From contig JBDRCT010000036.1 of the NCBI GenBank assembly GCA_043821445.1, positions 25,879 through 89,878 of the forward strand: a stretch of 64,000 nucleotides of DNA, in the 5' to 3' direction. The position numbers and the translations under genes are program-made. Below the pieces are notes generated by a model. The model saw only the letters and a list, made by a program, of their open reading frames with translations. It was not told where the DNA came from and made no database searches. This DNA is from Candidatus Omnitrophota bacterium (GTDB lineage: Bacteria; Omnitrophota; Omnitrophia; Omnitrophales; Aquincolibacteriaceae). Below are positions 53,056 to 62,470 of the stretch, one piece after another; the stretch's first letter is position 1; every line of letters starts with the position of its first letter.

Positions 53056-54264
53056 ATGAACAAGCGACGCGTGGTAGTCACGGGCATGGGGGTTCTTTCT
53101 CCGATAGGGAACACGCTTGCGGAGTTCCGTGAGAACCTTAAAAAAGGCGTCTCCGGGAAGGAGAATGCAGACCGCTCCATCGTCGAAGGATATGAGTTTC
53201 CTCCGATCTTTCCTCTCAAGGGCTTCAACCCGCGTCCCTACGGGACGCATCTCCTGGATCCCTTCATTCAATACGCCGTCGCGGCCGCTGAACAGGCGGT
53301 CACCGATGCCCGATTCGATGTTGCTGCCGTAGACCCTTACGATATCGCGCTTTCCATTAGCTCCAGCAAAGGGGGCGTCCACAGCCTCGGGCGGTTCAAG
53401 GAGCGTTTCCTGAGAAATCCCAGCGCGATCCTAGGCGCAAGAATGTACACCAGCGCCGTGCCGAATTTTGCCGATCAATGGATCGCCCGGCGCATGAAGA
53501 TCCAGGGACCCGCCAAGTGTTACGTGGCTGCGTGTGCAACAGGGACCGTGGCCATCGTCCAGGGGTTCCGTATGGTTTCCGAAGGGCAGGCGGAGTATTG
53601 CCTTGCTGGAGCAACGGACGCCTCTATCACGCCGCTTATGCTAGGAGGCTACAACAATATGAGAGCGCTTGCAGCTAAAGATATCCGCCCATTCGACAAA
53701 AGACGCGACGGATTTCTTGTGGGCGAAGGCGCGGGCGTGGTCTTCCTTGAAACGCTGGAAAGCGCGCGGGCGCGCGGCGCAAAGATCTACGGTGAGATCG
53801 TCGAGGCCGCCTACGGTCAAGACAGCAAACAGCCGATCCACTTTGATCTTACGGAGCACGCTCTGTCCTACACGCTGGGGGTTCTTATCAAGAGGGCCGG
53901 GATCACGCCGCGGGAGATCGACTATGTGAATCTGCACGGCACAGGCACGAAGTACGGGGATCTTTATGAAACGTCAGAGCTTAAAGAAGCGTTCGGGGAG
54001 CAGGCTTACGGGATCCCTATGAGTTCGACCAAAGGTTCGACTGGGCACATGCTCGGCGCAACGGGTGCCGTTGAGATCATCGCGACGCTCCTGGGGATCC
54101 AAGAAGGCTTCATCCCGCCGACGGTGGGACTTGAAGAAAAGGACCCGGCATGCGACCTTGACTATACGCCCGGGAATATGCGCCGTCATACGATCACGAA
54201 CGCCGTCAAGGTCTCCATGGGTTTCGGAGGGCAGGTCGCTGCCGCTCTTTTCAGAAAAGTCTGA
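53056..54264 (+). CDS. Beta-ketoacyl-ACP synthase (KAS I/II, FabF-like)
   Basis: RVVVTGMGVLSPIGN start. Active-site Cys region AACATG and HGTGT/GHMLGA His motifs. Confidence 0.85.
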   Translation: MNKRRVVVTGMGVLSPIGNTLAEFRENLKKGVSGKENADRSIVEGYEFPPIFPLKGFNPRPYGTHLLDPFIQYAVAAAEQAVTDARFDVAAVDPYDIALSISSSKGGVHSLGRFKERFLRNPSAILGARMYTSAVPNFADQWIARRMKIQGPAKCYVAACATGTVAIVQGFRMVSEGQAEYCLAGATDASITPLMLGGYNNMRALAAKDIRPFDKRRDGFLVGEGAGVVFLETLESARARGAKIYGEIVEAAYGQDSKQPIHFDLTEHALSYTLGVLIKRAGITPREIDYVNLHGTGTKYGDLYETSELKEAFGEQAYGIPMSSTKGSTGHMLGATGAVEIIATLLGIQEGFIPPTVGLEEKDPACDLDYTPGNMRRHTITNAVKVSMGFGGQVAAALFRKV

Positions 54265-54312
54265 TCTTTTAAGTTGGTTTCTAATCGTAGGGTGAGCGCC
54301 TTTCGAGGGGGA

Positions 54313-55470
54313 ATGGAAAACTTATTTTCTCAAGAACTCAAATCCTTAAAAGAAAAAAACCTTTTTCGCCGTCTTCGCGTTTTGGAAGACCTTAAGGGCA
54401 CGCACGCGACATTCGAAGGGCGGAGACTCCTTCTCTTTTGCAGCAACGACTACCTGGGACTTAGCCGACATCTCCGCGTGGTCCGGGCCGCCCAAAAAGC
54501 GCTCAAGACTTACGGTGTGGGCGCGGGTGCGGCGCGACTTATCTCAGGGACCTCGAAGGCGCACGCCGTCCTTGAAAAGAAACTAGCGCAGATCAAAGGA
54601 AAAGAAAACGCACTAGTCTTTGCTTCTGGATTTCTCGCGAATCTCGGCATTCTGACCGCGTTTGCCGGCGAGAAAGACACTATCATTATGGACAAGCTTT
54701 GCCACGCGTCGCTCGTTGACGGTGCCCGGCTCTCGAAAGCCGAGCTTCGTGTATTTCCGCATAAAAATTATAAGAAATGCGAAGAACTTCTCCGCGGTTC
54801 GCAGAGCGCGAGGCGGCGGATCCTCGTGACCGAAACGGTGTTCAGCATGGACGGCGACCTGGCGGACCTTAAAGAACTTGTCCGCTTGAAAAAAAGATAT
54901 AACGCATTGCTTGTCGCTGACGATGCGCATGGTACGGGGGTTCTGGGAAAGCATGGCCGCGGTATGACCGAAGACGGGAATCTTTCAAAAAAGATCGATA
55001 TCATTATGGGGACGCTTTCAAAAGCTCTCGGCGGTCTCGGGGGATTTATCGCCGCAGACAAAGGCATAGTAGATTATCTGGTGAATTTCGCGAGGCCGTT
55101 CATCTTTGCGACCGCGCTCCCGCCCCTTCTTTGTGAGGCCGCGCACGAGGCGCTCTGCGTCGTCGAGGAAGAACCCGTGTTAAGGAAAAGACTTTGGGAC
55201 AATATCCATCAAGTTTATCAAGGGCTCGCGGGGCTTGGGCTTTCGATCGGAAAGCCCGAATCCGCGATCCTTCCGGTGATAATAGGCGACGAAGGAAAAG
55301 CGATGGAGGTCTTCGAAAAACTTCTTGCGCACGGGGTCTTCATTCCTGCCGTGCGTTATCCAACCGTTCCCAAGGGAAAGGCCCGGCTGAGGATCACCGT
55401 TTCCGCGGCGCATACCCGTCAAGACATCGCAAAGTTAATCGCGGCATTTATAAAAGCCATAGAACAATAA
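54313..55470 (+). CDS. bioF: 8-amino-7-oxononanoate synthase
   Basis: SNDYLGLS motif and PLP-lysine region TLSKALGG. 386 aa. Confidence 0.85.
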   Translation: MENLFSQELKSLKEKNLFRRLRVLEDLKGTHATFEGRRLLLFCSNDYLGLSRHLRVVRAAQKALKTYGVGAGAARLISGTSKAHAVLEKKLAQIKGKENALVFASGFLANLGILTAFAGEKDTIIMDKLCHASLVDGARLSKAELRVFPHKNYKKCEELLRGSQSARRRILVTETVFSMDGDLADLKELVRLKKRYNALLVADDAHGTGVLGKHGRGMTEDGNLSKKIDIIMGTLSKALGGLGGFIAADKGIVDYLVNFARPFIFATALPPLLCEAAHEALCVVEEEPVLRKRLWDNIHQVYQGLAGLGLSIGKPESAILPVIIGDEGKAMEVFEKLLAHGVFIPAVRYPTVPKGKARLRITVSAAHTRQDIAKLIAAFIKAIEQ

Positions 55471-55478
55471 AAACCCCG

Positions 55479-56840
55479 ATGCGAAACAAAGAGAAGAGAA
55501 CAGACAGACTGATCGCTAAAGACCGAAAGCATCTTTGGCACCCCTTCACCCAAATGAAAGAATGGCAGACCGACGAGGTAGTGGTCATTGAAAAGGGGGA
55601 GGGCCGCTATCTCATTGACACCGAAGGGCGGAAATATCTCGACGGGGTGTCGTCGCTTTGGTGCAATGTTCATGGGCATCGGGTCAAAGAACTCGACCGG
55701 GCGATCGAAAAACAGCTTAAAAAAATTTCCCACAGCACATTTCTCGGGCTTACCCATCCGACAGCGATCGAGTTGGCCGAAAAGCTCATCGCGATCGCTC
55801 CCAAAGGGCTTACCCGTGTTTTTTACTCCGACTCCGGATCCGAGGCCGTAGAGATCGCGCTTAAAATGGCGTTCCAATATTGGGCTCAAAAAGAATGTCC
55901 CGGAAAGAAAAAATTCGCGCGGCTTGTGAACGCCTATCACGGCGACACGCTCGGGTCCGTGAGCGTCGGCGGGATAAACCTTTTTCACCGGATCTATAAG
56001 CCGCTTCTTTTTGAAACGATTGCGATCCCGTCACCGTACCGCTATCGCTGGGAAACGGGCAGCGCTCCGGAAAAAGCGAAAGAAGAGGCGCTGGGGGCGA
56101 TGAAAAAAATTTTGCGAGAACATCACGCGGAGCTTGCCGCATTCGTCATGGAGCCGCTGATGCAAGGCGCCGCGGGGATGATTGATCAGCCGGCGGGATA
56201 CATTTCCCGTGCCAGAGAGCTGACGCGAAAGTATAATACGCTCTTGATCTTTGACGAGGTTGCGACGGGGTTCGGGCGGACCGGGAAAATGTTCGCGGCG
56301 GATCACGAAAACATAACACCCGATATCATGGCGATCGCCAAAGGCATCACCGGCGGCTATCTCCCTCTTGCCGCAACGCTTGCGACCGAGGAGATCTACG
56401 GCGCGTTCTTGGGCCGCTACGAAGAATTTAAAACGTTCTTCCACGGCCACACCTATACGGCGAACCCGCTGGCCTGCGCTGCGGCGATCGCGAATCTCGC
56501 GCTTTTTGAAAAACAAAAAACGCTGGCGAAGCTACAACCTAAGATCCGGTTTATTCAAAAACGCCTCAAAGATTTTTATAAACTTAAGTGTGTCGGCGAT
56601 ATCCGGCAATGCGGCATGATGGTCGGGATCGAACTTGTTCGCGATCCAAAAACAAAAGAAACTTTTAGTCCGAAGGAAAAGATCGGCATGCGCGTGGTCG
56701 AACGGGCCCGCAAGAAAGGCGCCATCCTCCGCCCGCTGGGTCCGGTGATCGTTCTTATGCCGCCGCTTGGGATGACGGAAAAAGAGCTCAACCGTTTGTT
56801 GGACATTACTTACGAATCCATTAAGGAAGTGACGGAATGA
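55479..56840 (+). CDS. bioA: Adenosylmethionine-8-amino-7-oxononanoate aminotransferase
   Basis: Class III aminotransferase. HLWHPFTQ N-terminal motif, DEVATGFGRTG and the PLP-Lys region. Confidence 0.85.
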   Translation: MRNKEKRTDRLIAKDRKHLWHPFTQMKEWQTDEVVVIEKGEGRYLIDTEGRKYLDGVSSLWCNVHGHRVKELDRAIEKQLKKISHSTFLGLTHPTAIELAEKLIAIAPKGLTRVFYSDSGSEAVEIALKMAFQYWAQKECPGKKKFARLVNAYHGDTLGSVSVGGINLFHRIYKPLLFETIAIPSPYRYRWETGSAPEKAKEEALGAMKKILREHHAELAAFVMEPLMQGAAGMIDQPAGYISRARELTRKYNTLLIFDEVATGFGRTGKMFAADHENITPDIMAIAKGITGGYLPLAATLATEEIYGAFLGRYEEFKTFFHGHTYTANPLACAAAIANLALFEKQKTLAKLQPKIRFIQKRLKDFYKLKCVGDIRQCGMMVGIELVRDPKTKETFSPKEKIGMRVVERARKKGAILRPLGPVIVLMPPLGMTEKELNRLLDITYESIKEVTE

Positions 56841-56928
56841 ATATTGAGGGCACAACGCACAACGCACAACGTGCAACGAAAAAGTTTCTTCGTTGTGCGT
56901 TGCCCGTTGCCCGTTGCGCGAGGTTTTT

Positions 56929-57666
56929 ATGAAGTCAGGCATCTTTATTACTGGAACGGACACGGATGTCGGAAAAACAGTGATTTCCGCCGGCCTCGCG
57001 CTTGTCCTTCGGGATCGCGGACTAAAAATCGGTGTCATGAAGCCCGTGGCGACTGGCTGTTATGGTGGCGATGGGCGGCTTGTCTCACAGGATGCGGCAT
57101 TCCTGATGGAAGCCGCCCAGAACGAATACCCGCCGCTTATGAGTCCGTCGCGTTTTCGCAACGCTCTTTCGCCGAACGTCGCGGCCACCCTCGAAAAAAG
57201 AGAAGTGGATGTTCCCAACATTCTTAAAAGTTACCGCACACTTCAAAAACACTATGACTTCATGATCATTGAAGGCGTGGGAGGGCTTATGGTTCCCCTC
57301 AAAAAGGATTATTATGTGGCCAATCTCATTCGCGATATGGGGTTGCCTATCGTGATCGTGTCGTATGCGGGGCTTGGCGCGATCAATCACACGTTGCTTA
57401 CCGTGGACGCGGCCAGGATCCGGGGACTGGAAGTGCGCGGCATTATCTTTAACCGTGTTTCCGTAACGAATTACTCGTTGGCCGAGCTTACAAATCCAAA
57501 GGTCATTCACGATCTTTCCGGCGTTCCGATCCTTGGCAGTTTGCCTAATATTGAGGGGCTCAACATGGACAACTGCCAATTCGGAAGGCTCAAGGAGATC
57601 TTTCAAGAACGCATCCGGATCGACAAGATCGCGGGAAATTCTGCCGGCGTCATTCCTTCCCCGTGA
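56929..57666 (+). CDS. bioD: Dethiobiotin synthetase
   Basis: GIFITGTDTDVGKTVISAGLA P-loop. About 245 aa. Confidence 0.85.
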   Translation: MKSGIFITGTDTDVGKTVISAGLALVLRDRGLKIGVMKPVATGCYGGDGRLVSQDAAFLMEAAQNEYPPLMSPSRFRNALSPNVAATLEKREVDVPNILKSYRTLQKHYDFMIIEGVGGLMVPLKKDYYVANLIRDMGLPIVIVSYAGLGAINHTLLTVDAARIRGLEVRGIIFNRVSVTNYSLAELTNPKVIHDLSGVPILGSLPNIEGLNMDNCQFGRLKEIFQERIRIDKIAGNSAGVIPSP

Positions 57667-57724
57667 TCCGAAAGGAACACCAACCTTGTCCAAACGGTCC
57701 CAGCACTTAACCATTTCAGCCAAG

Positions 57725-59068
57725 TTGGAGTCGGGAGCGCCCAGGCCGCCGTTCAAAAAAAGCAAGGAAAGACCTGGACGGAAAGCCATCGGCATTCGGC
57801 TTGAAAGAAAAAAAGACGCAAGTTTACTAGGTTTCAATCTTAAACGTCCTTACCCGCCCGAAAAAATCCGCATTCCCATTCCCGCCCTTGCGAAGCCATG
57901 CGTTAAAGTTGGCCAAACGGTTCAGACCGGGCAAAAGATCGCGGAAACACAAGGACCGGAAGGGGTGAACCTTCATGCCGGAATGCCCGGTACGGTAGCA
58001 AAAATAGGGGTTTTTCCAAGCGCGGCGGGTTCTGGAAAAAGGATGATCGAAATCCATAAACACGGAGAGTCCAAAGCCCTTCCGCCGGCGGAGGCGCGCA
58101 AAGGATGGGACGAGATCTCGGCAGAAGAACTCCCGAGGATCTTTCAAAATTCCGGGCTTGTGACTACGGATCCGCTCATGGAACCTGTCCACGTTAAGCT
58201 TGGGCGGTATGCCGGGGCGAGAACGATCATCATCAACGGTTGTGAGCCAGAACCTTATGTGACCTGCGAACAAACACTCATCCTGTCTCATTCCTTGGAA
58301 ATTTTAAAAGGCGCCGGATTACTCAAAAAAGCTCTTCGCGCCGAAAAGATTCTTTTCGCTTTCGAGAATTGCAACCTCGAGATGATCGAGCTGATCAAGA
58401 GCAAGATTTACTTTTTGAAATGGGAGCATGTGGAGGTCCGGACCGTGCCCGCGCTCCATCCCCAAGGACTGGAAAGCACGTTGCTTCAGGCCTGGTTTCC
58501 GGAAGCGGAAGACGAGGCCATTGTTTTTCCGGCGTCCACGGCATTCGCGGTTTACGAAGCGGTGGTGCAACAGAAACCTTTTTATGAAAGGGTCGTGACC
58601 GTGGGCGGCGAATGCGTGGTCGAGCCGCGGAGCCTTTGGTTGCCGATCGGAATTTCTTTCCACGATGCGCTTCACGCTTGTAAAGGGGTCATGCGCGAAC
58701 CTCAAACCATCCTGATGGGTGGACCCATGGCCGGAGAGACGCAGACGACGACGGAGGTTCCCGTCATGGCCGGGACGAACGCTATTCTTGCGCTTCCCGA
58801 AGAGATCGCAAAAGAAGAAACGGAGGCCTCGACGAGGGAGCCGTGCATCCGCTGCAATCTTTGCGTTGACCATTGCCCCGTTTTGCTTTCGCCTGCGATG
58901 ATCACGTTAGCTGCGGAGCAAAAAGAATTTGCCACTGCGGAAGAATGGAATGCCATGGAGTGCATAGAATGCGGAAATTGCGCCTATGTATGTCCCTCCA
59001 AACGGCCGATGCTGAGGCTGATCCGCTCAGCCCGCACTCTTTCGAATCCGGCGGTGGCTTATGGCTGA
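57725..59068 (+). CDS. RnfC-like electron-transport subunit (two 4Fe-4S ferredoxin motifs; degenerate NADH-binding glycine motif); start uncertain
   Basis: IIINGCEPEPYVTCEQ, MGGPMAGE, CIRCNLCVDHCP and CIECGNCAYVCP align with RnfC. The GLGGAGFPT NADH motif is replaced by GLVTTDPLMEP. No ATG lies near the expected N-terminus (TTG at 57686 or 57725). Confidence 0.6.
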   Translation: MESGAPRPPFKKSKERPGRKAIGIRLERKKDASLLGFNLKRPYPPEKIRIPIPALAKPCVKVGQTVQTGQKIAETQGPEGVNLHAGMPGTVAKIGVFPSAAGSGKRMIEIHKHGESKALPPAEARKGWDEISAEELPRIFQNSGLVTTDPLMEPVHVKLGRYAGARTIIINGCEPEPYVTCEQTLILSHSLEILKGAGLLKKALRAEKILFAFENCNLEMIELIKSKIYFLKWEHVEVRTVPALHPQGLESTLLQAWFPEAEDEAIVFPASTAFAVYEAVVQQKPFYERVVTVGGECVVEPRSLWLPIGISFHDALHACKGVMREPQTILMGGPMAGETQTTTEVPVMAGTNAILALPEEIAKEETEASTREPCIRCNLCVDHCPVLLSPAMITLAAEQKEFATAEEWNAMECIECGNCAYVCPSKRPMLRLIRSARTLSNPAVAYG

Positions 59069-59918
59069 AACGAAAACATTTTTTTATAGAACGGCTCTGC
59101 CGCCGCACATTCATTCCTCGGATTCTTTAGCCAGACGGTATTGGGGGCAGCTCGTCGCACTTATACCCGTTTTTGTGACAGCCTGTCTTGCTGGACGCGC
59201 GGAAATTCTTCGCATTTTTTTAATCTGTCTGGTGAGCACGACCGCGTTCGAATTCCTGGCGACAAAGCTTTTCCGGAAAAAAGAAAGTTTGCAAAACGGT
59301 GAAGCCGTGCTTGCCGCGGCCCTTTTTTCGCTGCTCATGCCCTCGAGATGTCCCTCCGAAGTCGTGGTGCTCGGTGTTTTTACGGCGGTCTTTGTCGCCA
59401 AAGAGCTTTTTGGCGGCGCAGGCTCCTATCCTTTGCACCCACTTTTTTTAGCGCGCATATTTTTAAAACTCTGTTTCCCCAAAGTCATGTCGGAACCGAT
59501 GCTTCTGGTTGACAGCAGCGTCTGGACGTTTGCGGGTCTTGGTCTCGGCGGGATCATTCTTCTCAAACAAAAACAAGGCTACTGGGAAACGCCCGCTCTC
59601 TTCATGTCCGTTTGCTTTGTCTGCGAAGCTTTGTTCGGAGGGCAAGGGACGCCAGCCACCTTTTTCAGCGGCGTTCTTTTGACGTCTTTTTTTCTTTTAG
59701 CGGATCCCGTGACCTTGCCCTTGACGCGCAAGGGGACGGCCTTTTTCATCCTTGGCGCGGCGCTTTTAAGCTCGAGGCTCAACCCGGAGGGATTCTCGAT
59801 CCTGTCGGCGGGATATGCAATTCTTCTGATGAATCTTCTGACGCCCTGGCTGGACGTCTGGCTCAAACCCATTCCCTACAAAACGAAACATCCGCTCAAA
59901 GCGACTTGGTCAACATGA
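59061..59918 (+). CDS. RnfD/NqrB-like membrane subunit
   Basis: ELFGGAGSYPLHPLFLARIF resembles the RnfD GG.G.NP.NPA motif. Polytopic, 285 aa. 4-nt overlap with the preceding gene. Confidence 0.55.
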   Translation: MAETKTFFYRTALPPHIHSSDSLARRYWGQLVALIPVFVTACLAGRAEILRIFLICLVSTTAFEFLATKLFRKKESLQNGEAVLAAALFSLLMPSRCPSEVVVLGVFTAVFVAKELFGGAGSYPLHPLFLARIFLKLCFPKVMSEPMLLVDSSVWTFAGLGLGGIILLKQKQGYWETPALFMSVCFVCEALFGGQGTPATFFSGVLLTSFFLLADPVTLPLTRKGTAFFILGAALLSSRLNPEGFSILSAGYAILLMNLLTPWLDVWLKPIPYKTKHPLKATWST

Positions 59919-60053
59919 GCGCCAAAAAAATAAAGGCTTGGACAGTTCTAGCATTGAAATATCTGTTTTTTGTGTTTTTCCTCGGACTGCTTGCCGCGAT
60001 CCTTTACGCAGCGCAGCTGCTGGGGAGCTAAAAAGCATGGGATCCTGGTCCAG

Positions 60054-60665
60054 ATGAAACTGCCCGAAAGGCTTTTTTCAAGAATGTTTTTAGCCTATCT
60101 TCCATTCATGGTCTATCCCTACGGTTTTTTCAAGGCCGGCGTTGCGGCGCTTTGGATCGTCGCGTTCCTTTGGGGCACGGTCTCTTTTTTCTGGTTTACC
60201 CGACGCTTTTTCCCCGACCATCTTTTGAAGCACGCCTTTTTCCTTTGGCTTGTCGTGTGGGCGCAAGCCATGTGGACGCTCACGAAGCTACCGCCCTACT
60301 GGATCGTGAGCGTTTTCTTTCTGACCCCGGTCTCCTTTCTCGATGATACAGCGAAAGCCAGCCATGTCCGCGTTTTTTCTAAAAAAGTGCCGCGATATTT
60401 TTTTGAGAGGGTCCTGACAGGAATCAGCTTTGCGGGTTTCGTGATGCTGTTGGCGCTTGTTCGGGAGATCGGGGAAAACAATCTTGGAATAAGAGCGTTC
60501 GAACAGCCAGCCGGTATGTTGCTTGTGGCCGCGGCCGTTGCTTTTTTATGGAAAAATCAACCCTATCGCAGGCGGTCCCAAGACCCATCAATCGAAGCGG
60601 AGCGGAGATTGGGGCCGTCCGAATCACCATTAATGAAAAGAAAACGAAGACTTGAAAGGGGATAA
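60054..60665 (+). CDS. Polytopic membrane protein with RnfE/RnfA-like C-terminal motif (LALVREIGENNLG)
   Basis: Multiple TM helices. LVREIGEN resembles the conserved LREIIGNG of RnfA/E. The N-terminus does not match. Confidence 0.35.
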   Translation: MKLPERLFSRMFLAYLPFMVYPYGFFKAGVAALWIVAFLWGTVSFFWFTRRFFPDHLLKHAFFLWLVVWAQAMWTLTKLPPYWIVSVFFLTPVSFLDDTAKASHVRVFSKKVPRYFFERVLTGISFAGFVMLLALVREIGENNLGIRAFEQPAGMLLVAAAVAFLWKNQPYRRRSQDPSIEAERRLGPSESPLMKRKRRLERG

Positions 60666-60666
60666 A

Positions 60667-61173
60667 ATGTATTTCTTGATCATCACCTTCAGTTTTTTGC
60701 TGGCGATGCGCGGCGCGAGGCACATGCCTCTCCAAAGACCCGCCGAGGGCCTCAGGCGCATTGTTCGCGAAGCCACGGATTTTTTTCTCACAATGAGTTT
60801 GATCCTCGCGCTTTTGGCGGTTGCCGCAGCATTCGAAGAAATTCGGACTGGCGCCCGGGACTACGCAATCTTGGGCTGCGGAATAGCGGCCTATCTGCTC
60901 TCGCGTCATCAGAAAAAAACGGATGTTTTCTTCCTTGCCGTGACGGCAAGTATTTTTATGATCGGTTCAAAACAACACGCTCTTTTGCAGGGAATCTTGC
61001 TGGCGGGGGTCGTCAGCGCGGGAACAGCGCTTTTTCAAGCCTGTTTTCTGGGCTTGAGATACAGACTTCTTTTTTCGTCCGTGCCGGCCTCCATGAAAGG
61101 ATGGCCAAGCCTGTGTCTTTTGGCCGGATTTATTTCTATGGTTTTATGGGGCCTCTGGGATTCGGCTTTCTAA
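60667..61173 (+). CDS. Polytopic membrane protein (168 aa), unknown; final gene of the Rnf-like cluster
   Basis: Four to five hydrophobic helices. ATG overlaps the stop of the preceding gene. Confidence 0.35.
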   Translation: MYFLIITFSFLLAMRGARHMPLQRPAEGLRRIVREATDFFLTMSLILALLAVAAAFEEIRTGARDYAILGCGIAAYLLSRHQKKTDVFFLAVTASIFMIGSKQHALLQGILLAGVVSAGTALFQACFLGLRYRLLFSSVPASMKGWPSLCLLAGFISMVLWGLWDSAF

Positions 61174-61378
61174 GGTTTTTGTTTGCGAAATCGACAATAG
61201 CGAGAAGAAAAAACTTGTCCCAACGAATTTGTTTTCACCCCGTTAGGAATTAGTGAGATAATACTCAATCAGTGTGGGGTCGGTTTAAAAAAGCTTTGAA
61301 ATAAATTGTAAACACGGAAAACGCGAAAATGTTTCTGAAAAACACTTCCCCTCTCTCATGGGACAAAGGAGCTTTCTC

Positions 61379-62470
61379 ATGGCCATCGAAAACATTCTGT
61401 TAGGAGCGGTCGAAAAAGAGGCTTCGGACATTCATCTTACCGTAGGCCGGCCTGTGACCTACCGCTTGGTCGGGGACCTGGTCTCGGTCAGCGAGAAGGC
61501 GCTGACCCAGCAGGATACGGAAGCCCTGGCCAAAGAGATCACGACCGAAGTCCAGCGCAAAAAGATCGAAGAGATCGGAGGCGTCGATTTCGGGTTTTCT
61601 TTTCAGGAAAAGGCACGTTTTCGCGTCTCCTGTTTTAAACAGCAGGGTCATTATTCACTTGTGTTGCGGCTCCTTCCCTCAAAGTTTTACAGCTTTGAAG
61701 AGATCGGATTACCACCGCAATTGATCGAGACGGTAAGCCTTCCGCGCGGCCTGGTGCTTGTGACGGGCCCCACCGGTTGCGGTAAAACGACCTCGCTCGC
61801 GACCATGCTCAATTACATTAACGAAAACTTCCCCAGACACATCATTACCGCCGAAGATCCAATCGAGTTCATGCATCATCATAAAAAGTGCGTGATCACT
61901 CAGCGGGAGGTTGGGGAGGACGTTCCGAGCTTTGCAGAAGCCATCGTAAAATCTTTGCGTCAGGACCCGGACGTCATTCTGATCGGAGAAATGCGTGACC
62001 TAGCGACCATGGAAACTGCCATTCGTGCTGCTGAAACGGGCCATTTAGTATTCTCCACGCTCCACACGACGGGTGCCGCACGAACGGTGGACCGCATCAT
62101 TGATGTTTTCCCCGCCTATCAGCAGCCGCTTGTCCGCGTGCAACTTGCTTCTACGATCGTTGCCGTGATCTCGCAAGTGCTTGTGCCTCGCCTGGACGGG
62201 AAGGGACGCGTGGCGGCATTCGAGGTCATGTTCGCAACGCCGGCCATTCGCAACCTCATTCGCGAAGGCAAAACCTATCAGATCATTTCCGAGCTTCAAA
62301 CCGGGTCGCGCCACGGCATGGTCATGATGGACGATTACCTCAAACAACTGTATACCCAGGGCATTATTAGCTATGAAGCCGCCCTCGACGTTGCCGTTGA
62401 TTCCCGCGAGCTTGGTCTTCAACTTTCCAAAAACCAACCCATAAGCAAGGGGAAAGACAAAGGAAAATAA
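61379..62470 (+). CDS. pilT: Type IV pilus retraction ATPase PilT-like
   Basis: ASDIHL..., Walker A GPTGCGKTT, Asp box and His box (GHLVFSTLHT), AIRNLIRE. About 363 aa. Confidence 0.85.
   Translation: MAIENILLGAVEKEASDIHLTVGRPVTYRLVGDLVSVSEKALTQQDTEALAKEITTEVQRKKIEEIGGVDFGFSFQEKARFRVSCFKQQGHYSLVLRLLPSKFYSFEEIGLPPQLIETVSLPRGLVLVTGPTGCGKTTSLATMLNYINENFPRHIITAEDPIEFMHHHKKCVITQREVGEDVPSFAEAIVKSLRQDPDVILIGEMRDLATMETAIRAAETGHLVFSTLHTTGAARTVDRIIDVFPAYQQPLVRVQLASTIVAVISQVLVPRLDGKGRVAAFEVMFATPAIRNLIREGKTYQIISELQTGSRHGMVMMDDYLKQLYTQGIISYEAALDVAVDSRELGLQLSKNQPISKGKDKGK

Follow-up and report, generated by a model that had tools for sequence, protein, structure and literature searches.

The Rnf complex (RnfABCDGE, EC 7.2.1.2) is a ferredoxin:NAD+ oxidoreductase in which electrons leave RnfB for a [2Fe-2S] cluster bound by two cysteines each of RnfA and RnfE, move on to flavin mononucleotide (FMN) on RnfG and then on RnfD, and continue from RnfD-FMN through RnfD-riboflavin, the two [4Fe-4S] clusters of RnfC and RnfC-FMN to nicotinamide adenine dinucleotide (NAD+) (PMC9588780, PMC11889175). 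Mutation of the [2Fe-2S] cysteines, of RnfG T185 or of RnfD N123 or D249 abolishes activity (PMC9588780, PMC11889175), and the membrane sites are each essential in Acetobacterium woodii Rnf (PMC11889175). In Na+-NQR, the NADH:quinone oxidoreductase that translocates Na+, the RnfC homologue NqrA has stayed in the complex without redox cofactors and substrate chemistry has moved to NqrB (PMC11889175). The 'NQR/RNF-like' partial systems of Actinobacteria and the candidate phyla radiation encode a fusion of RnfD/NqrB with NqrF, with ApbE or flavinylated, FMN-binding proteins as neighbours, and have been interpreted by Meheust et al. 2021 as supporting one-directional electron flow (PMC8238504). 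Here we analyze an Rnf-related locus of a Candidatus Omnitrophota bacterium, contained in a 64,000-nucleotide stretch of contig JBDRCT010000036.1 (positions 25,879 to 89,878; assembly GCA_043821445.1), hereafter the window.

The locus is a unit of five predicted genes, rnfC'-rnfD'-g-rnfE'-rnfA', which follows the order rnfCDGEA without rnfB. We consider it reasonably likely that these genes encode a functional five-subunit membrane complex that descends from an rnfCDGEAB ancestor, no longer acts as a ferredoxin:NAD+ oxidoreductase and belongs to Omnitrophota in all named cases; the unit would then be a repurposed Rnf derivative, probably with another job. We found no description of an rnfC'-rnfD'-g-rnfE'-rnfA' unit in the literature that we searched. 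An earlier note, made from the sequence of the window alone, had described the locus as a reduced Rnf-like cluster of four genes; a conserved 38-amino-acid (aa) open reading frame (ORF), g, lies between rnfD' and rnfE' and brings the number to five. All genes of the unit are on the + strand:

57686-59068, + strand: rnfC', 460 aa, probable TTG start; alternative TTG at 57725; reading frame open from 57533
59061-59918, + strand: rnfD', 285 aa, membrane subunit of the RnfD/NqrB family
59915-60031, + strand: mini-ORF g, 38 aa with a single transmembrane helix, at the place of rnfG
60054-60665, + strand: rnfE' (ORF3), 203 aa, polytopic; conserved core from 60054 to about 60563
60667-61173, + strand: rnfA' (ORF4), 168 aa, polytopic membrane protein

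Subunits, cofactor sites and conservation

The earlier note had recognised an RnfC-like and an RnfD-like gene by motif, and profile searches confirm both where it placed them. RnfC' scores 291 bits against the rnfC model TIGR01945, above the cut-off of 246, and matches the solved RnfC chains 9eri_C, 7zc6_C and 8ahx_C at E 7e-59 to 2e-53. This cytoplasmic subunit comprises an RnfC_N domain, a degenerate Nuo51-type domain (Complex1_51K), an SLBB domain and two [4Fe-4S] ferredoxin motifs. The Nuo51-type domain reaches 58.8 bits over profile positions 15-121 of PF01512, compared to 160.6 bits over positions 1-149 for canonical RnfC. As the earlier note had observed, the glycine-rich NADH-binding segment is replaced: alignment to the solved chains, 23 family members and two canonical RnfC proteins places GLVTTDPLMEP (58154-58186) exactly where canonical RnfC has GxVGxGGAxFPT. 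The replacement is itself conserved in the family as GLVTTDPxMEPVHxKL, an 8-aa deletion follows further on, and the neighbouring ExEPY loop is retained. Each of the 26 sequences aligned has all eight [4Fe-4S] cysteines. Further cysteines are conserved in the family at C59, C173, C181, C297 and C319 (numbered from the start at 57725), and two of these five are in the NGCEPEPYVTCEQ loop beside the former flavin site. The sites that define the losses and retentions in RnfC' and RnfD' are the following:

58154-58201, + strand: replaced glycine-rich FMN/NADH loop of RnfC', GLVTTDPLMEPVHVKL versus canonical GLVGMGGASFPTHVKL
58844-58996, + strand: two CxxCxxCxxxCP [4Fe-4S] motifs of RnfC', CIRCNLCVDHCP at 58844-58879 and CIECGNCAYVCP at 58961-58996
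59478-59537, + strand: site of the missing RnfD periplasmic linker, where about 45-65 aa with the flavinylated Thr (D..S.ATPL) are gone
59694-59735, + strand: retained RnfD motif LLADPVTLPLTRKG, with the Asp that corresponds to Asp248/Asp249 in the riboflavin/Na+ pocket

RnfD' matches PF03116 with 157 bits in two stretches (E 1e-45), compared to 367 bits in one stretch for canonical RnfD, and falls below the cut-off of TIGR01946. Its matches to 7zc6_D and 9eri_D are likewise split in two and skip target residues ~143-190. Thr153 of the periplasmic linker carries the covalent FMN of Clostridium tetanomorphum RnfD (PMC9588780); none of the 25 family members has this linker, and both canonical controls do. 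RnfD' still has the GGxG motif and also the N-terminal PHI arm; in solved structures this arm docks into RnfC and is buried there. RnfD' also keeps D215, conserved in 26 of 27 sequences and aligned with Asp248 of 7zc6_D, a residue that corresponds to the riboflavin/Na+ pocket position Asp248/Asp249 of RnfD (PMC9588780, PMC11889175). Identities among the RnfD' proteins of the family go down to ~25%. Homologues of RnfD' form a sharply bounded group of 275-285 aa, and search E-values step from 1e-41 for the most distant group member to 3e-20 for the nearest canonical RnfD (339 aa). Pfam scores fall stepwise from canonical subunits to this family (Complex1_51K 161 to 59 bits; PF03116 367 to 157).

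In every related locus of the window's clade, the gene between rnfD' and rnfE' is 33-49 aa long and contains a common (K/R)YLFF..FFL core; its ratio of nonsynonymous to synonymous substitution rates (dN/dS) is 0.14-0.22. It has no Pfam match, whereas canonical RnfG (184 aa) bears PF04205. Because g occupies the rnfG slot of the clostridial-type rnfCDGEAB order, as in the canonical locus L027, we read it by position as a putative RnfG cut down to its membrane anchor.

We assign the two remaining membrane proteins as divergent homologues of RnfE (ORF3) and RnfA (ORF4). The earlier note had left them unassigned with a weak resemblance to RnfA/E; the signals are indeed weak, but profile and fold comparisons now place both proteins, and what they match are RnfE-like and RnfA-like proteins rather than unrelated families. 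RnfE' has no Pfam or NCBIfam match. It recruits 114 homologue clusters, the named ones all from Candidatus Omnitrophota and all annotated 'hypothetical', and a profile search of 1.84 billion representative proteins returned 107 clusters of 150-200-aa proteins. Distant members of this family reach PF02508 (Rnf-Nqr) at E 8e-5, with the window's own proteins below the Pfam threshold. Alignment of the wide RnfE' family to canonical RnfE with hhalign gave a probability of 94.8% (E 5e-8, 159 columns), compared to 2.9% for RnfA, and the ten best Foldseek matches of an AlphaFold2 (AF2) model (predicted local distance difference test score, pLDDT, 74) in the PDB are RnfE, RnfA, NqrD and NqrE chains. 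The RnfE' family profile found no match among PDB sequences, and the link to RnfE comes solely from profile-profile and fold comparison. RnfE' has no conserved cysteine in its family and reads A-Y-L-P at the canonical G-x-C-P position. The distant family protein P0301 reads L-A-L-C-P-L at that site, either an intermediate or a chance cysteine.

RnfA' recruits 122 homologue clusters, matches the rnfA model TIGR01943 at E 1.4e-4 and aligns to RnfA with an hhalign probability of 71% (E 3.7e-5). The first Foldseek match of its AF2 model (pLDDT 77) is 9eri_A (E 0.011, probability 1.0), followed by 8ahx_A and 7zc6_A and then NqrE; these RnfA matches are from A. woodii, Azotobacter vinelandii and C. 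tetanomorphum. RnfA' has a single conserved cysteine, C150, in its last helix. In divergent relatives the two proteins occur as RnfE'-RnfA' fusions of 299 and 308 aa (P0325, P0317; L033 1076-1975, L034 3847-4773, L035 3546-4472), and these natural fusions suggest that E' and A' act as a pair, as RnfE and RnfA do. A metagenome scan with a single fused E'-A' protein as query found no relative.

Across the family, RnfC has lost its glycine-rich FMN/NADH loop, RnfD its flavinylation loop, RnfG its FMN domain, and RnfA and RnfE their four [2Fe-2S] cysteines; the features kept are both RnfC [4Fe-4S] motifs, the RnfD N-terminal arm and the RnfD pocket Asp. A phmmer search of the window (773 six-frame ORFs), for which each of the six subunits was represented by two canonical query sequences, recovered rnfC', rnfD' and a weak RnfA match on ORF4, with no RnfB, full RnfG or other Rnf-Nqr gene, and the flanks of 25 related loci also contain no RnfB gene. 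The earlier note's statement that RnfB and an FMN-bearing RnfG are missing therefore holds for the whole window, with the 38-aa helix standing in the rnfG slot. Because every site that the U-shaped transmembrane electron path and NADH chemistry require is consistently absent, the known path of Rnf is predicted to be impossible in this unit, which is very unlikely to work as a canonical ferredoxin:NAD+ pump. The same losses leave unsupported the earlier description of the unit as a minimal ion-translocating oxidoreductase or a module with a different electron donor, since they reach well past the donor site to the RnfD flavin loop, the RnfG domain and all four [2Fe-2S] cysteines.

The unit is conserved and under purifying selection, and it is not decaying. 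It occurs with the same flanks in 23 GTDB species genomes, 17 of them titled Candidatus Omnitrophota or Omnitrophica metagenome-assembled genomes (MAGs) and six titled 'uncultured bacterium', as well as on long metagenomic contigs, in the divergent MAG ADurb.Bin314 and on one still more distant contig. RnfD' homologues form 128 protein clusters; among the clusters of D', E' and A', every hit with an organism name is from Omnitrophota and most are unnamed metagenome proteins. Pairwise dN/dS is 0.07-0.35 across all five genes, and the five frames are intact in the loci examined, with rnfA' of L003 appearing shortened. The comparative genomics that the earlier note had called for thus shows a unit that recurs in 23 species loci and is under purifying selection.

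Proposed function and rival readings

In the mechanism that we propose, the Rnf-like assembly would be kept as a scaffold in which the sole surviving electron path is a short branch on the cytoplasmic side, from the RnfC' Fe-S clusters to the RnfD' pocket. The pocket may hold riboflavin, a quinone or another non-covalent cofactor, E', A' and g may serve as structural or ion-path subunits, and the partner on the RnfC' side would be something other than NADH. Since this branch is the only one that can survive, the complex is best pictured as a putative membrane-bound iron-sulfur redox module; we hold any specific donor or acceptor with much less confidence than the general reading. Several observations weigh against the proposal. 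Loss of FMN binding by RnfC' is deduced from one replaced loop and one deletion, with ExEPY kept; the assignments of E' and A' draw on weak, mutually consistent signals (Foldseek E 0.01-1); the homology of g to RnfG is positional only; and the pocket partner Asn of canonical RnfD (Asn123/124) is His126 in RnfD'. Cofactors could also bind non-covalently in unforeseen ways, and the genome may encode RnfB, RnfG or a full canonical Rnf at another locus.

The loss of many motifs, together with scores of E' and A' below all curated family thresholds, would also be expected of pseudogenes left from a former Rnf operon, the decaying paralogue that the earlier note had entertained. This reading is scarcely credible, and it is refuted by the wide recurrence of the unit and by its dN/dS values: the frames are intact apart from the L003 case, the replacement motifs are themselves conserved, and each subunit is represented by more than 100 clusters at identities that for RnfD' descend to ~25%. 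An ordinary, merely divergent ferredoxin:NAD+ Rnf, with RnfB and RnfG supplied in trans, is very improbable as well. It would agree with the passing TIGR01945 score of RnfC', with PGAP and IMG naming the two largest genes RnfC and RnfD and two JGI records naming A' RnfA, and with metabolic reconstructions that credit Omnitrophota with 'a conserved Rnf complex' (PMC10066038). However, no member has any of the four [2Fe-2S] cysteines, the flavinylation loop of RnfD or the glycine-rich loop of RnfC, and a conserved 38-aa gene fills the slot in which rnfG would stand. The phylum also has separate, canonical rnfBCDGEA operons whose subunits are of full size, with complete sets, one per MAG, in a dozen Omnitrophota MAGs of other genera (PMC8542988 supplementary table 5), and these may be the 'conserved Rnf' of the literature.

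Two further readings draw on genes next to the unit, here or in divergent relatives:

61358-62470 of the window, + strand: pilT-type ATPase gene (T2SSE family), downstream neighbour of the unit after a gap of 184 nt
L034 539-2395: DsbA-like gene
L036 1603-3336: DsbA-like gene
L038 5644-6978: DsbA-like gene
L033 2-109: C-terminal fragment of a DsbA-like gene

In all related loci that extend far enough, a pilT-type gene (71-95% identity) comes next after the unit; this holds even for the most divergent ones, whose upstream neighbours differ, and in L034 the gap is 19 nt. On this basis the complex could have no redox role and instead be a membrane platform or an ion channel that cooperates with the neighbouring PilT-type ATPase in type IV pilus function. 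We regard this as improbable: the adjacency may be inherited gene order, as the syntenic block continues beyond pilT with polA, coaE, rho, rpmE and prfA, the gap in the window is 184 nt wide, and a redox role is favoured by the strict conservation of the eight Fe-S cysteines. We know of no precedent for an Rnf-PilT interaction. A second neighbour, present in divergent relatives, hints at redox chemistry in the periplasm. In four independent divergent lineages the gene directly upstream of rnfD' encodes an N-terminally anchored protein with two to three DsbA/Thioredoxin_4 domains (CPFC sites). The gene lies between rnfC' and rnfD' in L036/L037 and L038 and abuts rnfD', by overlap or a gap of a few nucleotides, in L033 and L034/L035, and the encoded proteins are mutually orthologous at 42-55% identity. 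The RnfC' proteins of these lineages are intermediate in degeneration (Complex1_51K 103 bits, compared to 161 for canonical RnfC and 59 in the window), and the G-position protein of L034/L035 has 216 aa and no FMN_bind match. This recurrence suggests a link to periplasmic thiol-disulfide chemistry, and the Rnf-derived module might be a membrane partner of periplasmic DsbA-type oxidoreductases, moving electrons between the RnfC' clusters and the multi-DsbA protein in the manner of DsbB/VKOR or DsbD, possibly coupled to an ion gradient, with the DsbA of the window's clade encoded elsewhere. We consider this unlikely, if less so than the PilT reading. The window has no DsbA-like gene and none of the 25 close relatives has one within 10 kb of the unit, D', E' and A' have no cysteine conserved across the whole family and hence no visible thiol relay through the membrane, no transmembrane electron route is evident now that the [2Fe-2S] cluster and the RnfD flavin are gone, and the adjacency may be incidental. 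In L034 a 2-Cys peroxiredoxin gene precedes the DsbA-like gene, and the L036 protein has an additional N-terminal region of ~220 aa.

A broader scenario, which we put forward tentatively and hold to be doubtful, would combine these leads with the iron-sulfur module. Omnitrophota may have turned an ancient Rnf operon into a membrane machine with a cofactor-free D'-g-E'-A' scaffold or ion path and interchangeable redox heads, namely the cytoplasmic [4Fe-4S] protein RnfC' and an anchored periplasmic multi-DsbA protein that replaces the RnfG flavin domain. Such a machine would couple cytoplasmic Fe-S/ferredoxin chemistry, perhaps driven by an ion gradient, with periplasmic disulfide formation or reduction in quinone-poor anaerobes. 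Type IV pilins would be possible substrates, given the invariant pilT neighbour, and the DsbA partner of the window's clade would be encoded elsewhere. The recurrent DsbA-type gene upstream of rnfD' is in any case a lead on periplasmic disulfide handling in an uncultivated, largely anaerobic phylum.

Gene starts, neighbours and a repeat element

The earlier note had asked for its non-ATG start of the RnfC gene and an overlap with bioD to be resolved. The start is indeed a TTG, and this codon is conserved across the family (L001, L007, L011, L014, L015, L017-L019, L021-L023), with ATG exceptional. Its likeliest position is TTG 57686, which is preceded by AAAGGAA at 57671-57677, and TTG 57725 becomes the second choice. 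In relatives that lack an insertion found here, the TTG lies seven codons ahead of GIRLERKK and is preceded by a AGGAAAGA-type ribosome-binding site; TTG 57686 is the homologue of this family TTG and is followed in the window by an in-frame insertion of 105 nt. The overlap with bioD disappears, since bioD stops at 57666 and the apparent overlap comes from the longest-ORF extension to 57533. Within the unit, rnfC' and rnfD' overlap by 8 nt, an overlap kept in 22 of 23 related loci, the rnfD' stop and the g start overlap by 4 nt (ATGA; kept in 21 of 23), and rnfE' and rnfA' are 1 nt apart, a tight packing that suggests translational coupling of the five genes. In a scan of the locus for promoters and terminators, no signal relevant to operon structure exceeded the level expected from shuffled sequence. 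In some relatives the rnfE' frame continues well beyond its normal stop and covers part of rnfA' in a different frame (L007 10001-10609, L015 10001-11050, L021 10001-10699), giving putative tails that may be translated or may be artefacts of ORF extension.

Upstream of the unit lies a group of biotin genes:

53056-54264, + strand: fabF-like gene
54274-55470, + strand: bioF
ending at 56840, + strand: bioA
56929-57666, + strand: bioD (dethiobiotin synthase), which ends 19 nt before the rnfC' start

The gene bioD adjoins the unit in all 22 close relatives whose locus extends far enough upstream, and the bio genes form the side of the syntenic block opposite pilT. We considered a functional link between the unit and biotin synthesis, given that bioD abuts rnfC', and set it aside because divergent relatives have other upstream genes. 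The biotin cluster itself (window 53056-57666; L001 719-7698) places a KAS I/II-type ketoacyl synthase gene (the fabF-like gene) ahead of bioF-bioA-bioD, and in relatives it adds bioB, a short-chain dehydrogenase gene and a nitroreductase-family gene, the last absent from the window; this content suggests that the pimeloyl precursor is made by a non-standard route.

The 105-nt insertion in rnfC' is a copy of a repeat element of ~100 nt, with consensus CGGTCCCAAnACCnATCAATCGnAGCGAAGCGGAGATTGGGGCCGTCCAAACnACCATT...AAAAGAAA...GCTTGGACGG. The window contains two copies, both inside the 3.5-kb unit:

57686-57790, + strand: repeat copy 1, an in-frame 28-aa N-terminal insertion right after the rnfC' start codon (nhmmer E 4.5e-12)
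60564-60664, + strand: repeat copy 2, an extra C-terminal tail of rnfE' (nhmmer E 3.8e-26)

Most rnfE' homologues end ~28 aa earlier, without the repeat-derived tail. More than 40 copies occur in L003-L025 (for example L006 3222-3319, 4937-5041 and 9749-9848), almost always in gene orientation and often in frame within coding sequence, with insertions at several sites in rnfC', at the C-terminus of rnfD' (L005) and in the middle of two rnfE' homologues. The element has two hairpins, the second of which shows compensatory changes at five stem pairs in 5-9 of 23 aligned copies; folding of a single copy is no better than that of shuffled sequences (z = -0.36), and the structure is visible in the alignment only. 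Rfam holds no family for the locus or the element, which presumably resembles the Rickettsia palindromic elements.

Public records name these proteins inconsistently. RnfD' (P0115, P0116, P0130 and others) is listed as 'RnfABCDGE type electron transport complex subunit D', and E' is 'hypothetical' in every case. Most records of A' also read 'hypothetical', two call it 'RnfA subunit' and one calls it 'Stt3' (among P0370, P0424 and P0429). An exact search of the contig index with the window's RnfD' returned no entry, but NCBI protein records identical to the window's proteins exist for RnfD' (P0115) and A' (P0339, locus tag ABH891_07365).

Relation to Rnf, Na+-NQR and other derivatives

The closest described system is Rnf itself, in its clostridial-type rnfCDGEAB form. 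The unit and Rnf share the C-D-G-E-A gene order, the RnfC domain set, the RnfD transmembrane core with its PHI arm, GGxG motif and pocket Asp, and the Rnf-Nqr fold of E' and A'. They differ in that the unit has no rnfB in the locus or window, a single 38-aa helix for G, no RnfD loop with flavinylated Thr, no [2Fe-2S] cysteines and a replaced glycine-rich loop in RnfC', and its Pfam and NCBIfam scores lie far under those of canonical subunits. If the unit is counted as Rnf on the strength of its public labels, ferredoxin/NADH balancing and ion-gradient generation will be credited to a complex that is very probably incapable of either.

Two other relatives are built on the same membrane core. 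Na+-NQR (NqrABCDEF) shares with the unit a core of the D/E/A type, but has taken a different course: NqrA has no Fe-S clusters whereas RnfC' keeps both, and Na+-NQR keeps the [2Fe-2S] cysteines that the unit's family does not have. In turn, the unit's locus has no NqrF, no flavinylated NqrB or NqrC and no flavinylation motifs, and its proteins reach 41 and 56 bits with the NqrA and NqrB equivalog models, compared to cut-offs of 450 and 414. The NQR/RNF-like partial systems are, like the unit, reduced derivatives of the Rnf/Nqr core; no NqrF domain (PF00175), ApbE or FMN_bind gene is present in the unit's locus, and RnfD' carries PF03116 only. PrdC, an electron transfer protein associated with proline reductase, is likewise an RnfC-family protein outside canonical Rnf and is matched by RnfC' (TIGR04481, E 8e-28, 97 bits against a cut-off of 490), but no prd genes lie near the unit and RnfC' appears translationally coupled to an RnfD homologue. 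Set beside these systems, the family offers a test of which parts of the Rnf architecture are structural and which catalytic, and the unit would represent a second and more radical re-tooling of the Rnf scaffold after Na+-NQR, one that kept the Fe-S head and dropped every flavinylation and flavin site together with the [2Fe-2S] cluster.

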